Shown here in pieces: positions 1 through 12,501 of a stretch of 12,501 nt of DNA; positions within the stretch are counted from its first letter, which is position 1, and each line of letters starts with the position of its first letter. This DNA is from a virus, in the UHGV virus genome UHGV-1654647. One strand, written 5' to 3'. Both the position numbers and the translations under genes were made by a program. Below the pieces are notes generated by a model. The model searched no databases. It saw only the letters and a program-made list of their open reading frames with translations, and was not told the DNA's origin.

Positions 1-606
1 TCCGAAATCACAGAGAGCCGGGCAGGTGGGAACCGGTATGGAACCGGTTTTCAGGGCGCGCAGCAGCGCCTCGCGGGAAAAATAAAACGTCGCGCCAATC
101 TGGCGGGATTTCAGGATATCGCGGATGCGGTGCTCAAGCCCGGCGCGATACCAGTGCAACTGATAGTCGAAAGACTGCTCAAAGAAAATCTGCTCCAGCT
201 TTTCGATGGCCTCGTCACTGAAAAAATTCTTTTTCGGTTTGCGGCGCCCGCCTTTGTTGCGGTTAGCGACGTTCGGATTAAGGTCTGCTTCGTTGCCGGT
301 CTGGCTGTAGCGGTTGACCCGTGCCAGTCGTTCAATCTGGCGTCCGAGCAGGTCAATTTCCTTGAAGTCACCGCCGGTTTTCTGCGGTTTGATGATGAGC
401 TGGGTCAGCCGCGCTTCCAGGCTCATTTCGACACGGCTGATGGGGGCAACGCTGTCCCAGCCGTCGCGCTGTTTCCAGCTCTGCACCGTCGGGCGTTTCA
501 TCTGCAACATGGCGGCAATCTGCGGCACGGAAAACCCCTGCCAGTACAGCAGCGCCGCCTGACGACGCGGGTCGTGTAAAAGAGTGGTGTCTGTGGTGAT
601 GGTCAT
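1..606 (-). CDS. P: Terminase large (ATPase) subunit, N-terminal 202 codons; 3' part lies beyond the window start
   Basis: Minus-strand frame is open from ATG at 604-606 down to position 1 with no stop (MTITTDTTLLHDPRRQAALLYWQGFSVPQIAAMLQMKRPTVQSWKQRDGWDS...). Divergent from the O-N-M-L operon exactly as in the P2 Q-P / O-N-M-L layout. Absent from the ORF track because it has no stop inside the window. Confidence 0.8.
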   Translation of the reverse strand, partial: MTITTDTTLLHDPRRQAALLYWQGFSVPQIAAMLQMKRPTVQSWKQRDGWDSVAPISRVEMSLEARLTQLIIKPQKTGGDFKEIDLLGRQIERLARVNRYSQTGNEADLNPNVANRNKGGRRKPKKNFFSDEAIEKLEQIFFEQSFDYQLHWYRAGLEHRIRDILKSRQIGATFYFSREALLRALKTGSIPVPTCPALCDFG

Positions 607-779
607 GAATACCTCGCCGTGATGAATACACGGCAAGGCTACTGAGTCGCGCCCCGCGATTCGCTAAGGTGCTGTTGTGTCAGTGATAAGCCATCCGGGA
701 CTGATGGCGGAGGATGCGCATCGTCGGGAAACTGATGCCGACATGTGACTCCTCTAATCACTATTCAGGACTCCTGACA
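607..779. promoter_or_regulatory. Divergent intergenic region between P (leftward) and O (rightward); expected site of two activator-dependent late promoters
   Basis: 173-bp non-coding gap between two divergently oriented start codons; AGGA Shine-Dalgarno at 767-770 ahead of O ATG 780; direct repeat GACTCCT at 747-753 and 769-775. In P2 the P and O late promoters (Ogr-activated) lie in this position. Exact -10/-35 and activator boxes not resolved by eye. Confidence 0.5.
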
Positions 780-1634
780 ATGGCAAAAAAAGCATCAAAA
801 TTCTTTCGTATCGGCGTTGAGGGTGACACCTGTGACGGGCGTGTCATCAGTGCGCAGGATATTCAGGAAATGGCCGAAACCTTTGACCCGCGAGTCTATG
901 GTTGCCGCATTAACCTGGAACATCTGCGCGGCATCCTGCCTGACGGTATTTTTAAGCGTTATGGTGATGTGGTCGAACTGAAGGCCGAAAAGATTGACGA
1001 TGATTCGGCGCTGAAAGGCAAATGGGCGCTGTTTGCGAAAATCACCCCGACCGATGACCTTATCGCGATGAACAAGGCCGCGCAGAAGGTCTATACCTCA
1101 ATGGAAATTCAGCCGAACTTTGCCAATACAGGCAAATGTTATCTGGTGGGTCTGGCCGTCACCGATGACCCGGCAAGCCTCGGCACGGAATACCTGGAAT
1201 TCTGCCGCACGGCAAAACACAACCCTCTGAACCGCTTCAAATTAAGCCCTGAAAACCTGATTTCAGTGGCAACGCCTGTTGAGCTGGAATTTGAAGACCT
1301 GCCTGAAACCGTGTTCACAGCCCTGACCGAAAAGGTGAAATCCATTTTTGGCCGCAAACAGGCCAGCGATGACGCCCGTCTGAATGACGTGCATGAAGCG
1401 GTGACCGCTGTCGCTGAGCATGTGCAGGAAAAACTGAGCGCCACTGAGCAGCGCCTTGCTGAGATGGAAACCGCCTTTTCCGCACTTAAGCAGGATGTGA
1501 CTGACAGGGCGGATGAAACCAGTCAGGCATTCACCCGCCTGAAAAACAGCCTCGACCATACCGAAAGTCTGACCCAGCAGCGCCGCAGCAAAGCCACCGG
1601 CGGTGGCGGTGACGCCCTGATGACGAACTGCTGA
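780..1634 (+). CDS. O: Capsid scaffolding protein (284 aa)
   Basis: ORF 714..1634; start chosen at internal ATG 780 (MAKKASKFFRIGVEGDTCDGRV...) which has an SD and gives the 284-aa length I recall for P2 gpO; first gene of the head operon, upstream of the major capsid gene. Confidence 0.88.
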   Translation: MAKKASKFFRIGVEGDTCDGRVISAQDIQEMAETFDPRVYGCRINLEHLRGILPDGIFKRYGDVVELKAEKIDDDSALKGKWALFAKITPTDDLIAMNKAAQKVYTSMEIQPNFANTGKCYLVGLAVTDDPASLGTEYLEFCRTAKHNPLNRFKLSPENLISVATPVELEFEDLPETVFTALTEKVKSIFGRKQASDDARLNDVHEAVTAVAEHVQEKLSATEQRLAEMETAFSALKQDVTDRADETSQAFTRLKNSLDHTESLTQQRRSKATGGGGDALMTNC

Positions 1635-1692
1635 CCGGCGTCAGTCAGTCCGGGAAAACCTTCACGATTAACCCTTAATTTCAGGAAAAACT

Positions 1693-2766
1693 ATGCGCCA
1701 GGAAACCCGCTTTAAATTTAATGCCTACCTGTCCCGTGTTGCCGAACTGAACGGCATCGACGCCGGTGATGTGTCGAAAAAATTCACCGTTGAACCGTCG
1801 GTCACCCAGACCCTGATGAACACCATGCAGGAGTCCTCTGACTTTCTGACCCGCATCAACATTGTGCCGGTCAGCGAAATGAAAGGGGAAAAAATTGGTA
1901 TCGGTGTCACCGGCTCCATCGCCAGCACCACCGACACCGCCGGTGGCACCGAGCGTCAGCCGAAGGACTTCTCGAAGCTGGCGTCAAACAAGTACGAATG
2001 CGACCAGATTAACTTCGATTTTTATATCCGCTACAAAACGCTGGACCTGTGGGCGCGTTATCAGGATTTCCAGCTCCGTATCCGTAACGCCATTATCAAA
2101 CGCCAGTCCCTTGATTTCATCATGGCCGGTTTTAACGGCGTGAAGCGTGCCGAAACCTCTGACCGCAGCAGCAATCCGATGCTGCAGGATGTGGCGGTCG
2201 GCTGGCTGCAGAAATACCGCAATGAAGCCCCGGCGCGCGTGATGAGCAAGGTCACTGACGAGGAAGGGCACACCACCTCTGAGGTCATCCGCGTGGGTAA
2301 GGGCGGTGATTATGCCAGCCTTGATGCACTGGTGATGGATGCGACCAACAACCTGATTGAGCCGTGGTATCAGGAAGACCCTGACCTTGTGGTGATTGTG
2401 GGACGTCAGCTACTGGCGGACAAGTATTTTCCCATCGTCAACAAGGAGCAGGACAACAGCGAAATGCTGGCCGCTGACGTCATCATCAGCCAGAAACGCA
2501 TCGGCAACCTGCCAGCGGTACGCGTCCCGTACTTCCCGGCGGATGCGATGCTCATCACGAAGCTGGAAAACCTGTCCATCTACTACATGGATGACAGCCA
2601 TCGCCGCGTGATTGAGGAAAACCCGAAACTCGACCGCGTGGAGAACTACGAGTCAATGAACATTGATTACGTGGTGGAAGACTACGCCGCCGGTTGTCTG
2701 GTGGAAAAAATTAAGGTCGGTGATTTCTCCACACTGGCTAAAGCGACCGCAGAGCCGGGAGCGTAA
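1693..2766 (+). CDS. N: Major capsid protein (357 aa)
   Basis: ORF 1693..2766, MRQETRFKFNAYLSRVAELNGIDAGDVSKKF...; recognised as the P2 gpN major capsid protein; length and position after the scaffold gene fit. Confidence 0.93.
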   Translation: MRQETRFKFNAYLSRVAELNGIDAGDVSKKFTVEPSVTQTLMNTMQESSDFLTRINIVPVSEMKGEKIGIGVTGSIASTTDTAGGTERQPKDFSKLASNKYECDQINFDFYIRYKTLDLWARYQDFQLRIRNAIIKRQSLDFIMAGFNGVKRAETSDRSSNPMLQDVAVGWLQKYRNEAPARVMSKVTDEEGHTTSEVIRVGKGGDYASLDALVMDATNNLIEPWYQEDPDLVVIVGRQLLADKYFPIVNKEQDNSEMLAADVIISQKRIGNLPAVRVPYFPADAMLITKLENLSIYYMDDSHRRVIEENPKLDRVENYESMNIDYVVEDYAAGCLVEKIKVGDFSTLAKATAEPGA

Positions 2767-2769
2767 CCG

Positions 2770-3513
2770 ATGACGAGTCCCGCACAGCGCCACATGATGC
2801 GGGTCTCGGCAGCGATGACCGCGCAGCGGGAAGCCGCCCCGCTGCGACATGCAACTGTCTATGAGCAGATGCTGGTTAAGCTCGCCGCAGACCAGCGCAC
2901 ACTGAAAGCGATTTATTCAAAAGAGCTGAAGGCCGCGAAAAAACGCGAACTGCTGCCGTTCTGGTTGCCGTGGGTGAACGGCGTGCTGGAGCAGGGCAAA
3001 GGTGCACAGGATGACATTCTGATGACGGTCATGCTGTGGCGTCTGGATACCGGCGATATTGCCGGTGCGCTGGAGATTGCCCGTTATGCCCTGAAGTACG
3101 GTTTGACCATGCCGGGTAAACACCGCCGTACCCCGCCGTACATGTTCACCGAGGAGGTAGCGCTTGCGGCCATGCGCGCTCACGCTGCCGGTGAGTCTGT
3201 GGATACCCGCCTGCTGACGGAGACCCTTGAACTGACCGCCACGGCTGACATGCCTGATGAAGTGCGCGCAAAGCTGCACAAAATCACCGGTCTGTTTCTG
3301 CGTGACGGTGGTGATGCCGCCGGTGCGCTGGCTCACCTGCAACGTGCGACACAGCTCGACTGTCAGGCAGGCGTCAAAAAAGAGATTGAACGACTGGAGC
3401 GGGAGCTGAAACCGAAGCCGGAGCCGCAGCCCAAAGCGGCCACCCGCGCCCCGCGTAAGATCCGGAGCGTGACACCGGCAAAACGTGGACGCCCGAAAAA
3501 GAAAGCCAGTTAA
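2770..3513 (+). CDS. M: Terminase small (endonuclease) subunit (247 aa)
   Basis: ORF 2770..3513, starts 1 nt after N stop; basic K/R/P-rich C-terminus (KPKPEPQPKAATRAPRKIRSVTPAKRGRPKKKAS); position and length match P2 gpM. Confidence 0.88.
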   Translation: MTSPAQRHMMRVSAAMTAQREAAPLRHATVYEQMLVKLAADQRTLKAIYSKELKAAKKRELLPFWLPWVNGVLEQGKGAQDDILMTVMLWRLDTGDIAGALEIARYALKYGLTMPGKHRRTPPYMFTEEVALAAMRAHAAGESVDTRLLTETLELTATADMPDEVRAKLHKITGLFLRDGGDAAGALAHLQRATQLDCQAGVKKEIERLERELKPKPEPQPKAATRAPRKIRSVTPAKRGRPKKKAS

Positions 3514-3612
3514 CAACCGAATGCGCCCCGCGCCAGGGCGGCACGCCGGTCAGTGAGGGTGAATCACCTGACACTGCACCGGCGTCCACCGCCCGACTTT
3601 TCAGAGGTAGTC

Positions 3613-4122
3613 ATGATGACGCTGATTATTCCGCGAAAGGAGGCTCCCGTGTCCGGTGAGGGTACGGTGGTCATCCCGCAACCGGCAGGCGACGAGCCGG
3701 TGATTAAAAACACGTTCTTTTTTCCCGATATCGACCCGAAGCGCGTCCGGGAACGTATGCGCCTTGAGCAGACCGTCGCCCCCGCCCGTCTGCGTGAGGC
3801 CATCAAGTCAGGCATGGCGGAGACGAATGCGGAGCTGTACGAGTACCGCGAACAGAAAATTGCCGCCGGTTTTACGCGTCTGGCGGACGTCCCGGCGGAC
3901 GACATCGACGGTGAAAGCATCAAAGTTTTTTACTACGAGCGCGCCGTGTGTGCGATGGCGACCGCGTCGCTTTATGAACGTTATCGCGGTGTGGATGCCA
4001 GTGCGAAAGGCGACAAGAAGGCCGACAGCATTGACAGCACCATTGATGAGCTGTGGCGGGATATGCGCTGGGCAGTGGCGCGCATCCAGGGCAAGCCGCG
4101 CTGCATCGTGAGTCAAATCTGA
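3613..4122 (+). CDS. L: Head completion/stabilisation protein (169 aa)
   Basis: ORF 3553..4122; start placed at ATG 3613 (MMTLIIPRKEAPVSGEG...), giving 169 aa as I recall for P2 gpL; stop overlaps X start (TGATG). Confidence 0.88.
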   Translation: MMTLIIPRKEAPVSGEGTVVIPQPAGDEPVIKNTFFFPDIDPKRVRERMRLEQTVAPARLREAIKSGMAETNAELYEYREQKIAAGFTRLADVPADDIDGESIKVFYYERAVCAMATASLYERYRGVDASAKGDKKADSIDSTIDELWRDMRWAVARIQGKPRCIVSQI

Positions 4123-4325
4123 TGAAGACCTTTGCGCTACAGGGCGACACGCTCGACGCCATTTGTGTCCGGTATTACGGGCGCACTGAGGGCGTGGTTG
4201 AGACCGTGCTCGCCGCAAATCCGGGACTGGCTGAACTGGGTGCGGTGCTGCCACACGGCACCGCCGTCGAACTGCCCGACGTTCAGACCGCGCCCGTGGC
4301 TGAAACTGTCAATCTGTGGGAGTAA
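4122..4325 (+). CDS. X: Tail protein X (67 aa, LysM-like fold family)
   Basis: Internal ATG 4122 of ORF 4053..4325 (MKTFALQGDTLDAICVRYYGRTEGVVETVLAANPGLAELGAVLPHGTAVELP...); start overlaps L stop; size and position match P2 gpX. Confidence 0.85.
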   Translation: MKTFALQGDTLDAICVRYYGRTEGVVETVLAANPGLAELGAVLPHGTAVELPDVQTAPVAETVNLWE

Positions 4326-4328
4326 CGC

Positions 4329-4610
4329 ATGACAGCAGAAGAAAAAAGCGTCCTGTCGCTTTTCATGATTGGGGTGCTGATTGTTGTCGGCAAGGTGCTT
4401 GCCGGTGGTGAACCCATCACCCCGCGTCTGTTTATCGGGCGCATGTTGCTCGGTGGTTTTGTCTCGATGGTTGCCGGTGTTGTTCTGGTGCAGTTTCCTG
4501 ACCTGTCACTGCCTGCGGTGTGCGGTATCGGCTCCATGCTGGGTATCGCCGGTTATCAGGTGATTGAGATTGCCATTCAGCGCCGCTTTAAGGGCAGGGG
4601 GAAACCGTAA
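4329..4610 (+). CDS. Y: Holin (93 aa)
   Basis: Small protein with hydrophobic transmembrane stretches (LSLFMIGVLIVVGKVLAGG..., GGFVSMVAGVVLVQF...) and charged C-terminus; sits immediately upstream of the endolysin; stop overlaps K start (TAATG). Confidence 0.88.
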   Translation: MTAEEKSVLSLFMIGVLIVVGKVLAGGEPITPRLFIGRMLLGGFVSMVAGVVLVQFPDLSLPAVCGIGSMLGIAGYQVIEIAIQRRFKGRGKP

Positions 4611-5107
4611 TGCCGGTTATTAACACGCATCAGAATATCGCCGCCTTTCTCGACATGCTGGCCGTGTCCGAAGGGACGGCAAACCATCCGCTGACGAAAA
4701 ACCGGGGCTATGACGTGATAGTCACCGGACTGGACGGGAAGCCGGAAATTTTCACCGACTACAGTGACCACCCGTTCGCACATGGCCGACCGGCGAAGGT
4801 GTTTAACCGTCGCGGTGAAAAATCCACGGCCTCCGGTCGCTATCAGCAGCTTTACCTGTTCTGGCCGCATTACCGCAAACAGCTTGCCCTGCCGGATTTC
4901 AGTCCGTTGTCACAGGACAGACTTGCCATTCAGTTGATCCGCGAACGCGGTGCACTGGATGACATCCGGGCGGGACGCATTGAGCGCGCCATTTCACGCT
5001 GTCGCAATATCTGGGCGTCCCTGCCGGGTGCCGGTTACGGTCAGCGTGAGCATTCACTGGAAAAACTGGTCACCGTCTGGCGTGCCGCTGGCGGCGTACC
5101 GGCTTAA
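4610..5107 (+). CDS. K: Endolysin (lysozyme/muramidase-like, 165 aa)
   Basis: ORF 4610..5107, MPVINTHQNIAAFLDMLAVSEGTANHPLTKNRGYDVIVTG...; second gene of the lysis cassette; length matches P2 gpK. Confidence 0.88.
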   Translation: MPVINTHQNIAAFLDMLAVSEGTANHPLTKNRGYDVIVTGLDGKPEIFTDYSDHPFAHGRPAKVFNRRGEKSTASGRYQQLYLFWPHYRKQLALPDFSPLSQDRLAIQLIRERGALDDIRAGRIERAISRCRNIWASLPGAGYGQREHSLEKLVTVWRAAGGVPA

Positions 5108-5121
5108 ACGGAGTAAACACC

Positions 5122-5547
5122 ATGAAGAAATTATCCCTTTCACTGATGCTGAACGTGTCGCTGGCGCTGATGCTGGCACTGTCCCTGATTTACCCGCAGA
5201 GCGTGGCCGTCAATTTTGTCGCCGCCTGGGCGATTCTGGCGACGGTTATCTGTGTGGTTGCCGGTGGTGTCGGCGTGTATGCCACTGAGTATGTGCTGGA
5301 ACGCTACGGGCGGGAGCTGCCGCCGGAATCGCTGGCCGTGAAGATTGTCGCGTCGCTGTTTTTGCAGCCGGTGCCGTGGCGCAGACGGGCGGCGGCTCTG
5401 GTGGTGATGGTGGCGACGTTTATCTCGCTGGTCGCTGCCGGGTGGATTTTTACCGCGCTGATTTACCTCGTGGCGTCGGTGTTCTTCCGGTTGATACGCA
5501 CGGCCTGTCGTCAGCGTTTTGAGGGGCGGGAACCATGTCAAAGCTGA
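5122..5547 (+). CDS. lysA: Lysis timing/regulator membrane protein LysA (141 aa)
   Basis: ORF 5122..5547, strongly hydrophobic with multiple predicted transmembrane segments; located between endolysin and spanin genes as in P2. Confidence 0.8.
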   Translation: MKKLSLSLMLNVSLALMLALSLIYPQSVAVNFVAAWAILATVICVVAGGVGVYATEYVLERYGRELPPESLAVKIVASLFLQPVPWRRRAAALVVMVATFISLVAAGWIFTALIYLVASVFFRLIRTACRQRFEGREPCQS

Positions 5548-5960
5548 TGATTGTGCTGGTTGTGTTGTTATCACTGGCGGTGGCCGGTCTGTTTCTGGCG
5601 AAGCATGAAAACGCCAGCCTGCGCACCTCGCTGGACAGGGCGAACAACGTCGCCAACGGGCAGCAGACGACCATCACCATGCTGAAAAATCAGCTTCATG
5701 TTGCCCTCGCCAGAGCAGACAAAAACGAGCTGGCGCAGGTGGCACTGCGTCAGGAACTGGAGAACGCGGCGAAGCGTGAAGCACAGCGCGAGAAAACCAT
5801 CACGAGGTTACTGAATGAAAACGAAGATTTTCGCCGCTGGTACGGCGCTGGCCTGCCTGATGCTGTGCGCCGGTTGCACCAGCGCCCGGCCTGCACCGAC
5901 GCCAGTGATTGTCGCCAACGCCTGCCCGAAAGTGAGCCTTTGCCCGATGCCGGGCAGTGA
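5535..5960 (+). CDS. lysB: Inner-membrane spanin (Rz-like) LysB (141 aa)
   Basis: ORF 5535..5960; N-terminal TM anchor (MSKLMIVLVVLLSLAVAGLFLA) followed by a charged, coiled-coil-like periplasmic region; start overlaps lysA end by 13 nt. Confidence 0.83.
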   Translation: MSKLMIVLVVLLSLAVAGLFLAKHENASLRTSLDRANNVANGQQTTITMLKNQLHVALARADKNELAQVALRQELENAAKREAQREKTITRLLNENEDFRRWYGAGLPDAVRRLHQRPACTDASDCRQRLPESEPLPDAGQ

Positions 5961-6105
5961 CCCGGAGACGAACGGCGATTTAAGTGCCGATATCCGACAG
6001 CTTGAGAACGCGCTGGCACGCTGTGCCAGCCAGGTAAAAATGATTAAACACTGTCAGGACGAAAACGATGCTCAAACCCGACAGCCTGCGCAGGGCGCTG
6101 ACTGA
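5815..6105 (+). CDS. lysC: Outer-membrane lipoprotein spanin (Rz1-like) LysC (96 aa), in +1 frame overlapping lysB 3' end and R 5' end
   Basis: ORF 5815..6105; signal peptide with Cys-containing lipobox-like motif (MKTKIFAAGTALACLMLCAGC) then Pro-rich mature part (TSARPAPTPVIVANACPKVSLCPMPGSDPE); overlapped architecture as in P2 lysB/lysC. Confidence 0.75.
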   Translation: MKTKIFAAGTALACLMLCAGCTSARPAPTPVIVANACPKVSLCPMPGSDPETNGDLSADIRQLENALARCASQVKMIKHCQDENDAQTRQPAQGAD

Positions 6106-6535
6106 TGCCGTCACGGTGCTGAAAACCAGTCCCGAGATGCTGCGGATATTCGTTGATAACGGGAGTATTGCCTCCACGCTGGCGACGTCGTTGTCATTCG
6201 AAAAGCGTTACACGCTCAATGTGATTGTGACCGACTTTACCGGTGATTTTGACCTGCTCATCGTGCCGGTGCTGGCGTGGCTGCGGGAAAATCAGCCCGA
6301 CATCATGACCACCGACGCAGGCCAGAAAAAGGGCTTCACGTTTTATGCAGACATCAACAATGACAGCAGCTTTGATATCAGCATCAGCCTGATGCTGACC
6401 GAGCGCACGCTGGTCAGTGAGGTGGACGGCGCACTGCATGTGAAGAATATCCCGGAACCCACGCCGCCGGAGCCGGTCACCCGCCCGGTGGAGCTTTATA
6501 TCAATGGCGAACTGGTGAGCAAGTGGGATGAATGA
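6068..6535 (+). CDS. R: Tail completion protein R (155 aa)
   Basis: ORF 6068..6535; position after the lysis cassette and length match P2 gpR; stop overlaps S start (ATGAATGA). Confidence 0.87.
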   Translation: MLKPDSLRRALTDAVTVLKTSPEMLRIFVDNGSIASTLATSLSFEKRYTLNVIVTDFTGDFDLLIVPVLAWLRENQPDIMTTDAGQKKGFTFYADINNDSSFDISISLMLTERTLVSEVDGALHVKNIPEPTPPEPVTRPVELYINGELVSKWDE

Positions 6536-6980
6536 GTTTAAGCGTTTTGAAGACCGGCTGACCGGACTGATTGAATCGCTGTCACCGTCAGGGCGTCGGC
6601 GACTGAGCGCCGAACTGGCGAAACGTCTGCGGCAGAGTCAGCAGCGTCGGGTGATGGCTCAGAAAGCCCCGGACGGCACACCCTACGCGCCACGCCAGCA
6701 GCAGAGCGCCAGAAAAAAGACTAGTCGTGTTAAGCGAAAAATGTTTGCGAAACTTATCACCAGTCGTTTTTTGCATATCAGCGCCAGCACGGAACAGGCA
6801 TCAATGGAATTTTACGGCGGAAAGTCACCGAAAATTGCGAGCGTGCATCAGTTCGGTCTGTCGGAAGAAACCCGGAAAGACGGTAAGAAAATTGATTATC
6901 CGGCGCGTCCCCTGCTCGGCTTTACCGGTGAGGATGTGCAGATGATTGAAGAGATTATTCTGGCGCACCTCGACCGTTAG
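6528..6980 (+). CDS. S: Tail completion protein S (150 aa)
   Basis: ORF 6528..6980, MNEFKRFEDRLTGLIESLSPSGRRRLSAELAKRLRQSQ...; position and length match P2 gpS. Confidence 0.87.
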   Translation: MNEFKRFEDRLTGLIESLSPSGRRRLSAELAKRLRQSQQRRVMAQKAPDGTPYAPRQQQSARKKTSRVKRKMFAKLITSRFLHISASTEQASMEFYGGKSPKIASVHQFGLSEETRKDGKKIDYPARPLLGFTGEDVQMIEEIILAHLDR

Positions 6981-7046
6981 TTGTGCCATTCCCGACACCT
7001 CATCGTCACATTGCCGCCGGTATGACCCGGCGGCATCCTTCCCGTT
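6981..7046 (+). promoter_or_regulatory. S-V intergenic region with a perfect GC-rich hairpin (7013-7034) immediately before V; probable location of the V-operon late promoter or a 5' leader structure
   Basis: 66-bp gap; GCCGCCGG (7013-7020), loop TATGAC, CCGGCGGC (7027-7034) is a perfect 8-bp inverted repeat ending 12 nt before the V ATG; no obvious SD for V; no T-run after the stem. P2 has a late promoter in front of V. Confidence 0.35.
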
Positions 7047-7682
7047 ATGAACACTCTCGCAAATATTCAGGAACTCGCGCGCGCACTGCGCAACATGATC
7101 CGCACCGGCCTTGTCGTCGAAACCGACCTTGACGCCGGTCGTTGCCGTGTGCAGACCGGCGGCATGTGCACTGACTGGCTTCAGTGGCTGACCCATCGCG
7201 CCGGACGTTCGCGCACATGGTGGGCGCCTTCCGTGGGGGAACAGGTGTTGATTCTGTCCGTGGGCGGTGAACTCGACACGGCGTTCGTTCTGCCGGGGAT
7301 TTATTCCGGCGATAACCCTGCGCCGTCTGCGTCGGCGGATGCACTGCATATCCGTTTCCCTGACGGGGCGGTGATTGAGTATGAACCCGAAACCAGTGGA
7401 CTCACGGTAAGCGGAATTAAAACGGCCAGCGTGACGGCTTCTGATTCTGTTACTGCCACGGTGCCGGTGGTCATGGTGAAAGCATCAACCCGCGTCACCC
7501 TGGACACACCGGAGGTGGTCTGCACCAACAAGCTGATTACCGGCACGCTGGAAGTGCAGAAGGGCGGGACGATGCGCGGCAACATTGAACACACCGGCGG
7601 TGAACTCTCATCAAACGGTAAGGTACTGCATACCCATAAACACCCCGGCGACAGCGGCGGCACAACCGGGAGTCCTTTATGA
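7047..7682 (+). CDS. V: Baseplate central spike protein (211 aa)
   Basis: ORF 7047..7682; length and position match P2 gpV; stop overlaps W start (ATGA). Confidence 0.88.
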   Translation: MNTLANIQELARALRNMIRTGLVVETDLDAGRCRVQTGGMCTDWLQWLTHRAGRSRTWWAPSVGEQVLILSVGGELDTAFVLPGIYSGDNPAPSASADALHIRFPDGAVIEYEPETSGLTVSGIKTASVTASDSVTATVPVVMVKASTRVTLDTPEVVCTNKLITGTLEVQKGGTMRGNIEHTGGELSSNGKVLHTHKHPGDSGGTTGSPL

Positions 7683-8026
7683 CAGCGCGTTATCTCGGAA
7701 TGAATCGCAGTGATGGCCTGACTGTCACTGACCTTGAGCATATCAGCCAGAGTATCGGCGATATCCTGCGTACCCCCGTCGGCTCACGGGTGATGCGTCG
7801 TGATTACGGCTCGTTGCTGGCGTCAATGATTGACCAGCCGCAGACCCCGGCGCTTGAGTTGCAGATTAAGGTCGCCTGTTACATGGCGGTGCTGAAATGG
7901 GAACCCCGCGTAACCCTGTCATCCGTCACCACTGAGCGCAGTTTTGACGGGCGAATGACTGTCACTTTGACCGGCCAGCACAACGACACCGGCCAGCCAC
8001 TTTCGTTAACCATCCCTGTGAGTTGA
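7679..8026 (+). CDS. W: Baseplate wedge protein (T4 gp25-like, 115 aa)
   Basis: ORF 7679..8026, MTARYLGMNRSDGLTVTDLEHISQSIGDILRTPVGSRVMRRDYGS...; length and position match P2 gpW. Confidence 0.88.
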   Translation: MTARYLGMNRSDGLTVTDLEHISQSIGDILRTPVGSRVMRRDYGSLLASMIDQPQTPALELQIKVACYMAVLKWEPRVTLSSVTTERSFDGRMTVTLTGQHNDTGQPLSLTIPVS

Positions 8027-8030
8027 AACC

Positions 8031-8939
8031 ATGCCGATTATCGACCTGAACCAGCTACCCGCACCGGATGTGGTCGAGGAGCTGGACTTTGAAACCATTC
8101 TCGCCGAACGCAAGGCGACACTGATTTCCCTTTACCCGGAAGACCAGCAGGAGGCGGTCGCCCGTACCCTGACGCTGGAATCCGAGCCTCTCGTCAAACT
8201 GCTGGAGGAAAATGCTTATCGTGAGCTTATCTGGCGTCAGCGTGTGAATGAGGCTGCACGGGCGGTAATGCTGGCCTGTGCCGCCGGTAATGACCTTGAT
8301 GTGATTGGTGCCAATTACAACACCACGCGCCTGACTATCACCCCGGCAGATGATTCGACCCTCCCGCCGACACCGGCCGTGATGGAATCTGACACCGATT
8401 ACCGTCTGCGTATTCAGCAGGCGTTTGAAGGTTTAAGCGTCGCCGGGTCGGTGGGAGCCTATCAGTATCATGGTCGCAGTGCCGACGGGCGTGTCGCGGA
8501 TATTTCTGTAACCAGTCCGTCTCCGGCCTGCGTCACCATCTCTGTGCTGTCACGTGAAAATAACGGTGTTGCATCCGAAGACCTGCTGGCCGTGGTGCGT
8601 AACGCCCTTAATGGTGAGGACGTCAGGCCGGTGGCCGACCGCGTGACCGTGCAGTCTGCCGCCATCGTTGAATACCAGATAAACGCCACGCTTTACCTTT
8701 ACCCTGGTCCCGAAAGCGAACCCATCCGCGCTGCTGCCGTGAAAAAACTGGAAGCGTACATCACGGCACAGCACCGGCTGGGGCGTGACATCCGTCTGTC
8801 TGCCATTTATGCCGCTTTGCATGTGGAAGGCGTGCAGCGTGTCGAACTGGCTGCACCACTGGCCGACATCGTGCTCAACAATACGCAGGCGTCTTTCTGT
8901 ACCGAATACAGCGTCGTGACCGGAGGCTCGGATGAGTGA
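8031..8939 (+). CDS. J: Baseplate assembly protein J (302 aa)
   Basis: ORF 8031..8939; length and order match P2 gpJ; stop overlaps I start (ATGAGTGA). Confidence 0.88.
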   Translation: MPIIDLNQLPAPDVVEELDFETILAERKATLISLYPEDQQEAVARTLTLESEPLVKLLEENAYRELIWRQRVNEAARAVMLACAAGNDLDVIGANYNTTRLTITPADDSTLPPTPAVMESDTDYRLRIQQAFEGLSVAGSVGAYQYHGRSADGRVADISVTSPSPACVTISVLSRENNGVASEDLLAVVRNALNGEDVRPVADRVTVQSAAIVEYQINATLYLYPGPESEPIRAAAVKKLEAYITAQHRLGRDIRLSAIYAALHVEGVQRVELAAPLADIVLNNTQASFCTEYSVVTGGSDE

Positions 8940-9543
8940 TTCGCGACTGCTGCCGACCGGCTCATCACCGCTTGAAGTTGCCGCCGCAAAAGCCTGTGCG
9001 GAAATTGAAAAAACGCCGGTCAGTATTCGTGAGCTGTGGAACCCGGACACCTGCCCGGCAAATCTGCTGCCGTGGCTGGCGTGGTCATTTTCGGTTGACC
9101 GCTGGGATGATAAGTGGCCGGAAGCGACAAAACGCGCTGTTATCCGCGATGCGTATTTCATTCACTGCCATAAGGGCACTATAGGCGCAATCCGACGTGT
9201 GGTGGAGCCGCTCGGCTATCTGATTGAGGTGAGGGAGTGGTGGCAACTCAACGAGGAGCCGGGGACGTTCCGTATCGTTGTTGGCGTGCTTGAGCAGGGT
9301 ATTACCGAGGAAATGTATCAGGAGCTGGAGCGCCTCGTTGCTGATGCAAAACCGGCAAGCCGCCATCTGACGGGACTGGCTATCAGTTTAAGTACAACCG
9401 GCAACATTTTTGCCGGTGCGGGATGCTATCACGGCGACGCCCTGACGGTTTATCCCTACACCCCGGAGGCCATTATTGTCGGAGGGGATTATTTCCCGGC
9501 CTCGGCCATTCATTTAATTGATAACCTGAGAGTAAACGCATGA
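8932..9543 (+). CDS. I: Baseplate protein I (203 aa; apparently longer than the 176 aa I recall for P2 gpI)
   Basis: ORF 8932..9543, MSDSRLLPTGSSPLEVAAAKACAEIEKTPVSIRELWNPDTCPANLLPWLAWSF...; start overlaps J stop, stop overlaps H start (ATGA). Confidence 0.82.
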   Translation: MSDSRLLPTGSSPLEVAAAKACAEIEKTPVSIRELWNPDTCPANLLPWLAWSFSVDRWDDKWPEATKRAVIRDAYFIHCHKGTIGAIRRVVEPLGYLIEVREWWQLNEEPGTFRIVVGVLEQGITEEMYQELERLVADAKPASRHLTGLAISLSTTGNIFAGAGCYHGDALTVYPYTPEAIIVGGDYFPASAIHLIDNLRVNA

Positions 9544-11087
9544 CAGTGAAATACTACGCCATTCTGACTAATCAGGGCGCGGCACGGCTGGCTAACGCGA
9601 CGATGCTCGGCAGTAAGCTGAATCTGACGCAAATGGCCGTTGGTGATGCGAATGGTGTCTTGCCGACACCAGACCCGGCACAGACAAAACTGATTAATCA
9701 GAAACGCATTGCACCGCTGAATCTTCTGAGTGTTGACCCGAACAACCAGAGCCAGATTATTGCGGAGCAAATCATCCCTGAGAACGAGGGCGGATTCTGG
9801 ATCCGTGAGATTGGGCTTTATGATGATGAAGGCGTACTCATTGCGGTGGCGAACTGCCCGGAAACGTACAAACCGCAGTTGCAGGAAGGCAGCGGTCGTA
9901 CCCAGACTATCCGCATGATTCTGGTTGTCACGAATACCGAAGCCATCACGCTGAAAATCGACCCGTCGGTGGTACTGGCGACCCGTAAATACGTGGATGA
10001 TGAAGTTCTGGAATTAAAGCTGTATGTGGATGACCAGATGAGAAACCACATTGCCGCACAGGATCCTCATACCCAGTATGCACAGAAACATAATCCGACA
10101 TTTACCGGAGAACCAAAAGCGCCGACGCCTGCCGCAGGAAATAACACCACGCGGATTGCGACCACTGAGTTTGTTCAGGCCGCTATTACCGCTCTGATTA
10201 ACGGTGCGCCAGCCACGCTGGACACACTGAAAGAAATTGCCTCAGCCATTAACAATGACCCGAAATTCAGCACCACCATTAACAATGCGCTGGCACTGAA
10301 AGCTCCGCTGTCGAGTCCCGCACTTACCGGAACGCCAACAGCACCTACTGCGGCACAGTCGGTCAACAATACACAGATTGCCACCACGGCTTTTGTGAAA
10401 TCAGCAATTGCGGCAATGGTGGGTTCTGCCCCTGCGGCACTGGATACACTGAATGAACTGGCGGCGGCGCTGGGGAATGACCCTAACTTTTCAACAACAG
10501 TGCTTAATGCACTGGCAGGCAAACAACCGCTGGACAATACGCTGACTAATTTGAGTGGAAAGGATGTTGCCGGTCTTCTCGCATACCTTGGTTTGGGAGA
10601 AGGCTCTGCATTACCTGTTGGTGTCCCTGTTCCGTGGCCTTCAGCCACTCCGCCAACAGGCTGGCTGAAATGCAATGGTGCAGCTTTTTCTGCTGAAGAA
10701 TACCCGGAACTGGCAAAAGTTTACCCGACAAATAAATTGCCTGATTTACGTGGTGAGTTTATTCGTGGCTGGGATGACGGGCGGGGGATTGATACAGGTC
10801 GCTCTATTTTAAGTATTCAGGGATATGCAACGGAGGATCATGCTCATGGATTACCGTCAAGATCCACGATTGTGACTGATGCAACTATTAATTTCTATTT
10901 TGATGAAAGCTGGGTAAATAGTGGCACTGACATTATCAAAAGAGGAAACACAAACGATGCCGGATTACCAGCACCGGATTATGGAACCTTTAAAACATAT
11001 AAACAATCAGTGGCTGGTTTAGGTGCCGCAGCCTCAGAAACGCGTCCGCGTAATATTGCATTTAACTATATCGTGAGGGCAGTCTGA
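9540..11087 (+). CDS. H: Tail fibre protein (515 aa): baseplate-attachment N-terminus, two tail-fibre repeats, crossover site, then collar-like receptor-binding C-terminus
   Basis: ORF 9540..11087. N-terminus has P2 gpH-like motifs (EGGFWIREIGLYDDEGVLIAVANCPETYKPQLQEGSGRTQT). C-terminus has tail-collar-like motifs (PVGVPVPWPSATPPTGWLKCNGAAFSAEEYPELAKVY, LPDLRGEFIRGWDDGRG). Much shorter than the 669 aa I recall for P2 gpH. Confidence 0.88.
   Translation: MTVKYYAILTNQGAARLANATMLGSKLNLTQMAVGDANGVLPTPDPAQTKLINQKRIAPLNLLSVDPNNQSQIIAEQIIPENEGGFWIREIGLYDDEGVLIAVANCPETYKPQLQEGSGRTQTIRMILVVTNTEAITLKIDPSVVLATRKYVDDEVLELKLYVDDQMRNHIAAQDPHTQYAQKHNPTFTGEPKAPTPAAGNNTTRIATTEFVQAAITALINGAPATLDTLKEIASAINNDPKFSTTINNALALKAPLSSPALTGTPTAPTAAQSVNNTQIATTAFVKSAIAAMVGSAPAALDTLNELAAALGNDPNFSTTVLNALAGKQPLDNTLTNLSGKDVAGLLAYLGLGEGSALPVGVPVPWPSATPPTGWLKCNGAAFSAEEYPELAKVYPTNKLPDLRGEFIRGWDDGRGIDTGRSILSIQGYATEDHAHGLPSRSTIVTDATINFYFDESWVNSGTDIIKRGNTNDAGLPAPDYGTFKTYKQSVAGLGAAASETRPRNIAFNYIVRAV
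10092..10307 (+). repeat. Tail-fibre repeat unit 1 (protein-level, about 72 aa) within H
   Basis: NPTFTGEPKAPTPAAGNNTTRIATTEFVQAAITALINGAPATLDTLKEIASAINNDPKFSTTINNALALKAPL aligns residue by residue with unit 2; the DNA copies are diverged. Confidence 0.7.
10311..10532 (+). repeat. Tail-fibre repeat unit 2 (protein-level, about 74 aa) within H
   Basis: SSPALTGTPTAPTAAQSVNNTQIATTAFVKSAIAAMVGSAPAALDTLNELAAALGNDPNFSTTVLNALAGKQPL; same motif order as unit 1 (Pro/Thr linker, NNTxIATTxFV, APAxLDTLxEuAxAuxNDPxFSTTuxNALAxK). Confidence 0.7.
10576..10601 (+). repeat. Left crossover site of invertible segment (gix/hix/cix-like 26-bp site) inside H
   Basis: TTCTCGCATACC-TT-GGTTTGGGAGAA: two imperfectly palindromic 12-bp half-sites around a central TT; resembles recalled gixL TTCCTGTAAACCGAGGTTTTGGATAA and hixL. 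Its 3' 15 nt are repeated exactly, inverted, at 12447-12461. Encodes LLAYLGLGE in the H frame. Confidence 0.7.
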
Positions 11088-11689
11088 TGCATAAAGCAAT
11101 ATTAAATAGTGAGCTCATTGCAACAAAGGCAGGGGATGTTACCGTTTATAACTATGATGGTGAAACACGGGAATATATTTCCACTTCAAATGAATATCTT
11201 GCCGTTGGTGTCGGCATTCCGGCATGTTCCTGTTTAGATGCCCCTGGCACACATAAGGCTGGTTATGCAATCTGCCGTTCTGCAGATTTTAACTCATGGG
11301 AATATGTGCCAGACCATCGCGGTGAAACGGTCTATAGCACCGAAACAGGAGAATCAAAAGAAATCACCGCTCCGGGTGATTACCCTGAAAATACAACCAC
11401 TATCGCCCCATTAACGCCATATGATAAATGGGATGGTGAGAAATGGGTGACGGATACCGAGGCACAGCATAGCGCCGCAGTAGATGCAGCAGAAGCACAG
11501 CGCCAGTCGCTGATTGATACTGCAATGGCTTCCATCAGTCTGATTCAACTGAAATTGCAGGCCGGACGTAAACTGACGCAGGCAGAAACAACCCGGCTTA
11601 ACGCTGTGCTGGATTACATTGACGCGGTGACGGCAACAGATACCAGCACCGCGCCGGATGTCATCTGGCCTGAACTGCCGGAGGCGTAG
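11087..11689 (+). CDS. G: Tail fibre assembly chaperone (Tfa family, 200 aa), partner of the currently expressed H C-terminus
   Basis: ORF 11087..11689; start overlaps H stop (TGATG); C-terminal Tfa-type motif (NAVLDYIDAVTATDTSTAPDVIWPELPEA); position equivalent to P2 gene G, but 200 aa versus the 175 aa I recall. Confidence 0.85.
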   Translation: MHKAILNSELIATKAGDVTVYNYDGETREYISTSNEYLAVGVGIPACSCLDAPGTHKAGYAICRSADFNSWEYVPDHRGETVYSTETGESKEITAPGDYPENTTTIAPLTPYDKWDGEKWVTDTEAQHSAAVDAAEAQRQSLIDTAMASISLIQLKLQAGRKLTQAETTRLNAVLDYIDAVTATDTSTAPDVIWPELPEA

Positions 11690-12104
11690 GCCATTCAATA
11701 TCTGGCGCACCGGAAGTATCGACCAGTTCCAGTGCGTCCAGGTAATCCAGCCACAAATTATATTGCGCCAGTTCGTCACCTTTCAGACGACCAATAGCTG
11801 CTTTGCCAGGCCATTGCTTACTGTTCATATATTCGTTGGCATTATCAATAAGATTTTGCTTTTGAGCTGTGGCAAGGAGTATTGCTTCTTCAGGAGCCAT
11901 TGGTGGAATATCAACCCACTCAGGTTGTCCATCATCATTTGCACCGCGCGCTTTCCCTTCAGGTGGTGTTCCTGAATAAGTCAAAAATATTTCATCAGAT
12001 ACTGGCGTAATATCATCCGGTAAGCTGTCATATGAGCGATATAGCTCCAGCATATCTACCGGATAAAAAGCTAACGTCGTCCGTGAAAAATAATAATTAC
12101 TCAT
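11661..12104 (-). CDS. Alternative tail fibre assembly chaperone (Tfa family, 147 aa), convergent with G
   Basis: ORF 11661..12104 minus; MSNYYFSRTTLAFYPVD...; C-terminus YNLWLDYLDALELVDTSGAPDIEWPTPPAVQAR carries the same Tfa motif as G; 3' ends of the two chaperone genes overlap by 29 nt (11661-11689). Confidence 0.8.
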   Translation of the reverse strand: MSNYYFSRTTLAFYPVDMLELYRSYDSLPDDITPVSDEIFLTYSGTPPEGKARGANDDGQPEWVDIPPMAPEEAILLATAQKQNLIDNANEYMNSKQWPGKAAIGRLKGDELAQYNLWLDYLDALELVDTSGAPDIEWPTPPAVQAR

Positions 12105-12105
12105 A

Positions 12106-12501
12106 TCAGCACCCTATTGCAAACCAGCGAAAATTATAATTGCCACCAGAAGCATCACAGCGTAGAAGAAATCCTGTTCTGGTCATATTCCCTGCTGCCC
12201 CGGCAACAATTTTTCCGCCACCATTATCGTAGGACGTCACCACCTGAAAACATTGTGACGGAAAAGCGATTGTGAAATTCATCTCATTGCCTGTCGAGCC
12301 TACATAACCCGTACCTGCATCTCCTGCCCCCCATTGGATAATCAATCCTCCCGGTAACTTCTGATATCCCTTGCTGGCAATACTGTCAGAAAAAGAACTC
12401 ATATCCGGTATCTGACCTGAACCTGTTCCCACATCCCGTTTTGCCGCTTCTCCCAAACCAACGTTTATGAAAATGCAGAGATAACGGGCAAGTGGCATCA
12501 T
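12106..12501 (-). CDS. Alternative tail-fibre C-terminal receptor-binding cassette; probably start-less and expressed only when inversion fuses it to the constant part of H
   Basis: Minus-strand ORF running from the window edge to a stop at 12106-12108, 1 nt upstream of the alternative chaperone start; crossover site lies at codons NVGLGE; downstream Gly-rich sequence (AAKRDVGTGSGQIPDMSSFSDSIASKGYQKLPGGLIIQWGAGDAGTGYVGSTG...) unrelated to the plus-strand H C-terminus. The ATG ATG at 12496-12501 may be fortuitous. Confidence 0.65.
   Translation of the reverse strand: MMPLARYLCIFINVGLGEAAKRDVGTGSGQIPDMSSFSDSIASKGYQKLPGGLIIQWGAGDAGTGYVGSTGNEMNFTIAFPSQCFQVVTSYDNGGGKIVAGAAGNMTRTGFLLRCDASGGNYNFRWFAIGC
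12448..12473 (+). repeat. Right crossover site of invertible segment (inverted relative to 10576-10601)
   Basis: TTCTCCCAAACC-AA-CGTTTATGAAAA; its reverse complement TTTTCATAAACG-TT-GGTTTGGGAGAA shares the central dinucleotide and the whole right half-site with the left site; half-site TTCTCCCAAACC resembles the gix half-site TTATCCAAAACC. Confidence 0.7.

Follow-up and report, generated by a model that had tools for sequence, protein, structure and literature searches.

Described inversion systems and the present locus

In the Hin and Gin systems, an invertase dimer binds each recombination site, an invertasome is assembled with a Fis-bound enhancer, double-strand cleavage takes place through phosphoserine linkages, and a 180-degree rotation is followed by religation (PMC3798978; PMC3575834). 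The closest described relatives of the locus analysed here are (i) the P-region of e14, a cryptic prophage of E. coli K-12, with its invertase PinE; (ii) the C-segment of phage P1, with Cin; (iii) the G-segment of phage Mu, with Gin and (iv) the switches of the P2-like prophages of EPEC E2348/69 (Goldberg et al. 2014, PMC4272514). The e14 region has the gene order stfP–tfaP–tfaE–stfE–pinE and the sites CTCTCGAAAACC-TT-GGTTTGGGAGAA and TTTTCATAAACG-TT-GGTTTGGGAGAA, whose outer halves differ at 5 of 12 positions. The P1 record (AF234173) holds curated cixL (CAATCCTAAACC-TT-GGTTTAAGAGAA) and cixR (TTATCCAATACC-TT-GGTTTAAGAGAA) sites with mapped crossover points and a curated 72-bp enhancer inside cin; here, too, the two sites share one inner half and diverge in the outer half (4 of 12). 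In the EPEC prophages, a two-repeat version has been described and coexisting orientations were shown by reads and by PCR (PMC4272514). Inversion at the level of sequencing reads has been published both for P2-like prophages and for e14 (PMC4272514).

The window referred to below is the whole 12,501-bp stretch of virus genome UHGV-1654647. From the annotation of a near-identical copy in the prophage of E. coli AH01, which lists a GPO scaffold, P2-family capsid, terminase, lysis genes and baseplate V, W, J and I, it is the late region of a P2-like prophage. Positions 12448–12473 of the window are a 26-bp serine-invertase crossover site, TTCTCCCAAACC-AA-CGTTTATGAAAA, and we are highly confident that it is the invertase-proximal site of a Din-family (Pin/Cin/Gin/Hin-type) inversion switch in an E. 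coli P2-like prophage.

This site is identical at 26 of 26 positions to the site beside pinE in e14. The inner halves and TT centre, the extent of outer-half divergence, the gene order and the spacer between site and invertase gene are also the same in the two systems, both have a collar-type StfE-like fibre variant with a TfaE-like chaperone, and the invertases are 86% identical. They differ in that e14 is a lambdoid remnant, whereas the late region here is that of an intact-looking P2-like (Peduoviridae) phage; in the left outer half, which is TTCTCGCATACC here (P2 gpH-type constant region) and CTCTCGAAAACC in e14 and in the second cassette, which is gp53-like with a 147-aa chaperone instead of StfP/TfaP. 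The P1 system has the same 12-TT-12 layout, an invertase that is 80% identical and a cargo that likewise consists of alternative fibre C-termini with chaperones, but cin flanks the segment at its opposite end and is read towards it, cixL overlaps the end of cin, the segment is 4.2 kb long and the inner half is GGTTTAAGAGAA rather than GGTTTGGGAGAA. In Mu, the order S-U-U′-S′-gin likewise places the invertase gene downstream and pointing away from the segment, Gin is 79% identical and has a solved structure (3UJ3), and the spacer upstream of the invertase gene is homologous; the two gix sites, however, are fully identical and have TC at the centre, the segment is 3 kb long and the phage is of another type. 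The EPEC loci share their published design with the window, in that an invertase and inverted repeats switch fibre C-termini, but one of them has three repeats and four variants (PMC4272514) where the window has two sites. The switch is an ordinary system that has already been described, and it adds nothing new to DNA-invertase biology; both the protein accession and the segment can be found in RefSeq genomes.

Crossover sites

Written as its reverse complement, from outer half through centre to inner half, the right site reads TTTTCATAAACG-TT-GGTTTGGGAGAA. Its partner at positions 10576–10601, TTCTCGCATACC-TT-GGTTTGGGAGAA, lies inside a P2 gpH-like tail-fibre gene and within the fibre reading frame (..LLAYLGLGE..), and the right site itself is placed at the 5′ end of a reversed, headless fibre fragment. 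The two 26-bp sites are in inverted orientation, and in each a 2-bp core separates two half-sites of 12 bp that form an imperfect inverted repeat, as in the Din family. Inner halves and centre are identical between them. The preliminary description had reported an exact 15-bp inverted copy, a divergent outer half and identical central dinucleotides, and all three hold: the reverse complement of 12447–12461 is TTGGTTTGGGAGAAG, which is also the sequence of 10588–10602; the outer halves TTTTCATAAACG and TTCTCGCATACC have 5 mismatches in 12 positions and the central dinucleotides are asymmetric, identical and inverted (TT at 10588–10589; AA, TT on the other strand, at 12460–12461). The interval 12448–12473 that it had delimited coincides exactly with the 26-bp site. 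The central TT is the dinucleotide found in P1 cix and in e14.

Beyond the 15 bp, a repeat finder extends the match to an imperfect 27-nt inverted repeat (10576–10602 and 12447–12473, 81% complementary). The 15-mer TTGGTTTGGGAGAAG matches the window only at these two places, even when up to three mismatches are allowed, and the core GGTTTGGG/CCCAAACC occurs exactly at just the same two.

To score complete sites, a half-site weight matrix was built from the Mu gix and P1 cix half-sites only; the sites of the window were left out, so that the test is not circular. Both sites fit this model, the left with 23.4 bits and the right with 20.5 bits, compared with a maximum of 16.3 bits in 100 shuffles and 7.7 bits for the third-best position of the window. 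The small model is not very specific when taken alone, because 1 of 40 shuffles of the 31.8-kb AH01 prophage reached 20.0 bits. The bare repeat is likewise weakly significant by itself: an exact inverted repeat of at least 15 bp arose in 32 of 300 first-order Markov simulations of the window (about 11%; p about 0.1). Non-overlapping arms were required in these simulations, and a run without that rule, inflated by local palindromes, was discarded. The case for the sites is carried by context, and we consider the repeat to go beyond chance because both copies are complete 12-2-12 sites and because the joints of a natural inversion fall exactly there.

The invertible segment and its cargo

Between the two central dinucleotides lies a segment at positions 10590–12459, with a centre-to-centre distance of 1872 bp. 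Outside it is the constant N-terminal part of the P2 gpH-like fibre gene (9540–10587, plus strand; Pfam Phage_tail_fib, E=1.7e-62), which in the window runs into a collar-domain, StfE-like C-terminus (10602–11087, plus strand; Pfam Collar, E=1.4e-14) to form a 515-aa ORF at 9540–11087. This is the variant that is now fused and expressed, and it is followed by its chaperone gene, which is TfaE-like, encodes 200 aa (11087–11689, plus strand; Pfam Caudo_TAP, E=3.5e-33) and is called tfaE in the annotation of related genomes. The minus strand carries a silent alternative, made up of a gp53-like fibre C-terminus without an N-terminal part (12106–12446; Pfam Gp53-like_C, E=1.9e-18) and its own 147-aa chaperone (11661–12104; Pfam Caudo_TAP, E=1.5e-28). 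The two chaperone genes are convergent and overlap by 29 bp (11661–11689).

When the segment is inverted in silico, the gp53-like C-terminus is joined in frame to the constant part, and a 467-aa ORF results, which is the length of the fibre annotated in AH01 (L002 5519–6922). As in other tail-fibre switches, the fibre is intact and in frame in both states, with 515 and 467 aa.

Two further repeats were seen in this part of the window. An 18-nt inverted repeat inside the segment (11608–11625 and 11734–11751, 89% complementary) is not a recombination site: on both strands it encodes the conserved C-terminal motif of the Tfa chaperones, which reads (V)LDYIDA(V) in the plus-strand tfa gene and (W)LDYLDA(L) in the convergent minus-strand one. 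A 33-nt direct repeat in the constant part of the fibre gene (10094–10126 and 10316–10348, 73% identical) encodes a shaft motif (..PTFTGEPKAPT.. and ..PALTGTPTAPT..) and is the ordinary internal repetition of a tail fibre.

Inversion between related genomes

AH01 and the window are 100% identical in each of three pieces, namely 1048 bp on the left side of the core, the 1844 bp that separate the two cores and 40 bp on the right side. In AH01, however, the 1844-bp middle piece is inverted relative to both flanks, and the joints, at the left site as at the right, fall inside the 15-bp core. The constant fibre part is fused to the other variable part in AH01. Both 27-nt sites are unchanged in the flipped prophage (27 of 27 positions each). 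Window positions 37–10602 align to AH01 with no mismatches and one gap, and the inversion is essentially the sole difference between the two prophages over 12.5 kb, so the flip must be very recent. On these alignments the segment is one that inverts by crossover within the sites. The two-site serine-invertase switch that had been proposed from the window is thereby borne out, with a flipped segment in a 100%-identical prophage and an invertase gene in near-identical relatives.

We also note that the first ∼44 bases of the window (1–44) diverge completely from AH01, which marks a joint of mosaic recombination within the minus-strand gene for the terminase ATPase.

The AH01 comparison bears on two other accounts of the repeat. 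One is that the 15 bp are a by-product of the fibre peptide LGLGE on both strands, or of chance, with no recombination. The peptide L-G-L-G-E is indeed encoded by the 15 bp in both fibre variants, a repeat of this length is not rare in the simulated windows and the 11608–11625/11734–11751 pair is truly nothing but the Tfa motif LDY(I/L)DA on both strands. All of the synonymous positions are identical, however, the similarity continues in an outer half that is non-coding and agrees with the gix/cix model, the homology shared with an unrelated prophage (see below) stops exactly at the sites, and the precise inversion at these joints in AH01 refutes the account, to which we assign a negligible probability. 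The preliminary description had named a conserved protein motif as a possible source of the match; the motif is real, but recombination occurs there regardless.

The other account is that the genomes came to differ through RecA-dependent homologous recombination between short inverted repeats, which can in principle support inversion. An identity of 15 bp is shorter than the length needed for efficient RecA recombination, and the repeats are bona fide invertase sites that adjoin an invertase gene. Moreover, switches of the same design invert at measurable frequency in clonal cultures (PMC4272514). RecA-mediated inversion is therefore, in our judgement, extremely improbable, and we retain site-specific inversion by the invertase.

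Both states are common. In a survey of junctions in 5426 complete E. coli genomes, counting those with at least 80% coverage, the constant part was joined to the collar type in 345 genomes and to this gp53-like variant in 3 (many more have other gp53-like variants), while at the other end of the segment the gp53-like cassette was silent beside the invertase gene in 29 genomes and the collar-type cassette in 943. No orientation bias can be read from these counts, because they are confounded by P2 relatives that have no invertase and by the much greater sequence diversity of gp53-like cassettes.

At the same coverage (at least 80%), SCU-316 (NZ_CP054371.1, L001 3541–6503) is the only complete E. 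coli genome with the full 2.5-kb region in the orientation of the window. Its copy is 94.6% identical, and the annotation treats the fibre gene, the two chaperone genes and the silent cassette alike as frameshifted pseudogenes, which suggests either decay or a low-quality assembly.

A copy of the segment also occurs in a prophage of another type. In E. coli SW071614 (NZ_CM129856.1), L003 4001–5879 corresponds to window 10588–12464, and the segment is 99.6% identical over 1844 bp. The surrounding prophage is unrelated, being integrated at dusA, with Mu-like baseplate and ymfQ genes and an invertase that is only 53% identical, and the homology ends exactly at the crossover sites. This pattern suggests a recent cassette exchange between different prophage types, and there is a small chance that the exchange was an intermolecular reaction mediated by an invertase at these sites.

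Number of sites and orientation

The absence of a third site, claimed earlier for the window, is confirmed by the two cores and two model hits found there. The search of a full prophage that the preliminary description had proposed was run on the AH01 prophage (31.8 kb, from integrase to ogr), where no third core or model hit was present, and no further sites were found within 4 kb downstream in the SCU-316 and AH01 loci (L001 and L002). With two sites both in the window and in the AH01 prophage, the locus is set apart from multi-site systems with three or more sites, such as Min of p15B and the EPEC three-repeat locus. The phrase 'two-site, not a multi-site shufflon' applied to it is accordingly correct as to the two sites but loose in its last word, as the recombinase is of the serine type. 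In a true shufflon, the tyrosine recombinase Rci acts on multiple 19-bp sfx repeats in genes of the pilV type; the locus here combines a serine recombinase and two sites with a phage-fibre cargo.

It had also been suggested that the divergence of the outer halves could bias orientation. We find no support for this. Because the crossover is central and the inner halves are identical, inversion leaves the sequence of each site as it was, as seen in AH01, where both sites emerged unchanged. As the sites do not change and the predicted enhancer is located outside the segment, the reaction has the same sites and the same geometry in either direction. The divergence of outer halves, which the classical systems of e14 and P1 display to a similar degree, would therefore not by itself favour one orientation. 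Unequal orientation ratios have been measured in loci of this kind, one EPEC P2-like locus being about 90% forward (PMC4272514), and a bias can exist for reasons other than outer-half divergence.

A probable invertase gene beyond the window

The right site is followed by a 55-bp spacer towards the invertase gene, of which the window contains the start (12474–12501, plus strand); the ATG of the gene would fall at the window-equivalent position 12529, outside the window. Positions 12447–12501 are 100% identical to AH01 20022–20076, and the recombinase CDS of AH01 starts at 20104. In both AH01 and SCU-316, the two nearest relatives, the gene thus begins 28 bp past the point where the window ends, and the spacer in front of it shows homology to the corresponding spacers of pinE and gin. 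The product, WP_010835463.1 ('recombinase family protein'), is an intact protein of 197 aa in AH01, and the same protein is present in SCU-316. It contains Resolvase (E=3e-52) and HTH_7 (E=5e-13) domains, and residues 1–182 match the crystal structure of Mu Gin (3UJ3, E=7e-95). The N-terminal YVRVS motif is kept, with Ser9 at the position of Gin Ser9, which we take to be the catalytic residue. By these relatives, both identical to the window over its last 55 bp, a small serine recombinase adjoins the segment, as it does in Din-family systems.

We infer that the invertase gene is present and intact in UHGV-1654647 as well, from the 55 bp of identical flank and the two near-identical relatives. 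It is conceivable instead that the sites are genuine Din-type sites in a switch that is locked in this genome, the invertase beyond the window being missing or inactivated and the site a fossil. The gene does lie outside the visible window, the related P2-like phage NC_041848 has a frameshifted invertase gene and several genes are frameshifted in the SCU-316 copy of the segment. Against this, the identity to AH01 is complete over the 55 bp to the end of the window, the intact 197-aa invertase follows 28 bp on in both nearest relatives, and AH01 differs essentially by the inversion alone across 12.5 kb, so that the flip is very recent. We regard a locked switch as very unlikely here, and a working one as the preferred reading.

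In the phage just mentioned, Peduovirus magyaro (NC_041848.1, L008 4930–5530), the right site, TTCTCCCAAACC-AA-GGTATGCGAGAA, repeats the left one perfectly in inverted orientation and is followed by 16 extra bp and then by the CGTTTATGAAAA of the window. The invertase ORF of this phage runs for about 129 residues before a frameshift, and the switch is probably locked.

The 5′ end of the invertase gene may contain an enhancer, which in the Din family acts in cis and has two Fis sites. In an ungapped alignment, nucleotides 19–90 are 81% identical to the curated P1 enhancer, compared with 68% for the rest of the gene, which is consistent with a Fis-bound enhancer at this position. The same stretch, however, codes for the peptide that is most conserved in the family, and its synonymous sites show no significant extra constraint (5 of 19 versus 15 of 97, p=0.20). 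No sigma-70-like promoter that could serve the invertase gene turned up in a simple scan of the region around the right site and the start of the gene.

Model for inversion

By homology to the characterized systems, the reaction at this locus would proceed as follows. An invertase dimer would bind each 26-bp site and the two sites would then synapse, on supercoiled DNA, together with the Fis-bound enhancer predicted in the 5′ end of the invertase gene. Double-strand cuts with a 2-bp stagger would be made around the central TT/AA with formation of phosphoserine linkages, and half of the tetramer, one subunit pair, would rotate by 180 degrees before religation. The product would be an inversion of about 1.87 kb because the asymmetric central dinucleotide gives each site a polarity and the two sites are inverted. 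Since the left site is inside the fibre gene, inversion replaces the receptor-binding C-terminus: the collar/StfE-like C-terminus and its TfaE-like chaperone would be exchanged for the gp53-like C-terminus and its own chaperone, with a predicted change in host range. The cleavage chemistry, the dependence on Fis and enhancer and the consequence for host range are carried over here from what holds for the family.

An ORF through the right site

The window ends in an ATG-ATG on the minus strand (12501–12496), from which an ORF beginning MMPLARYLCIFINVGLGE extends out of the spacer, through the right site and, in frame, into the silent cassette (12501–12106). Its start and leader peptide are conserved in e14 (MPFACYFFIFINVGLGE...), and a GGAG lies directly upstream of the start, at a poor spacing. 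The equivalent ORF is annotated as a 178-aa CDS in AH01, and annotation pipelines call it either a CDS or a pseudogene. There is a slim chance that the 'silent' cassette is not fully silent, and that this ORF reads into whichever fibre C-terminus is parked there. If it were translated, a free receptor-binding fragment of the non-displayed variant would be made in each orientation.

Implications

The switch explains the gene layout at the window's right end, in which the fibre operon is followed by a chaperone gene in reverse orientation and a fibre C-terminus that has no promoter. The 131-aa 'gp53-like' ORF should accordingly be annotated as a cassette and not as a stand-alone gene. The practical value of recognizing the switch lies in such correct annotation and in the reading of assembly differences between strains, because the orientation of the segment differs between prophages that are otherwise identical. 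For the biology of the phage, the prediction is that lysates of this prophage would contain two host-range types.
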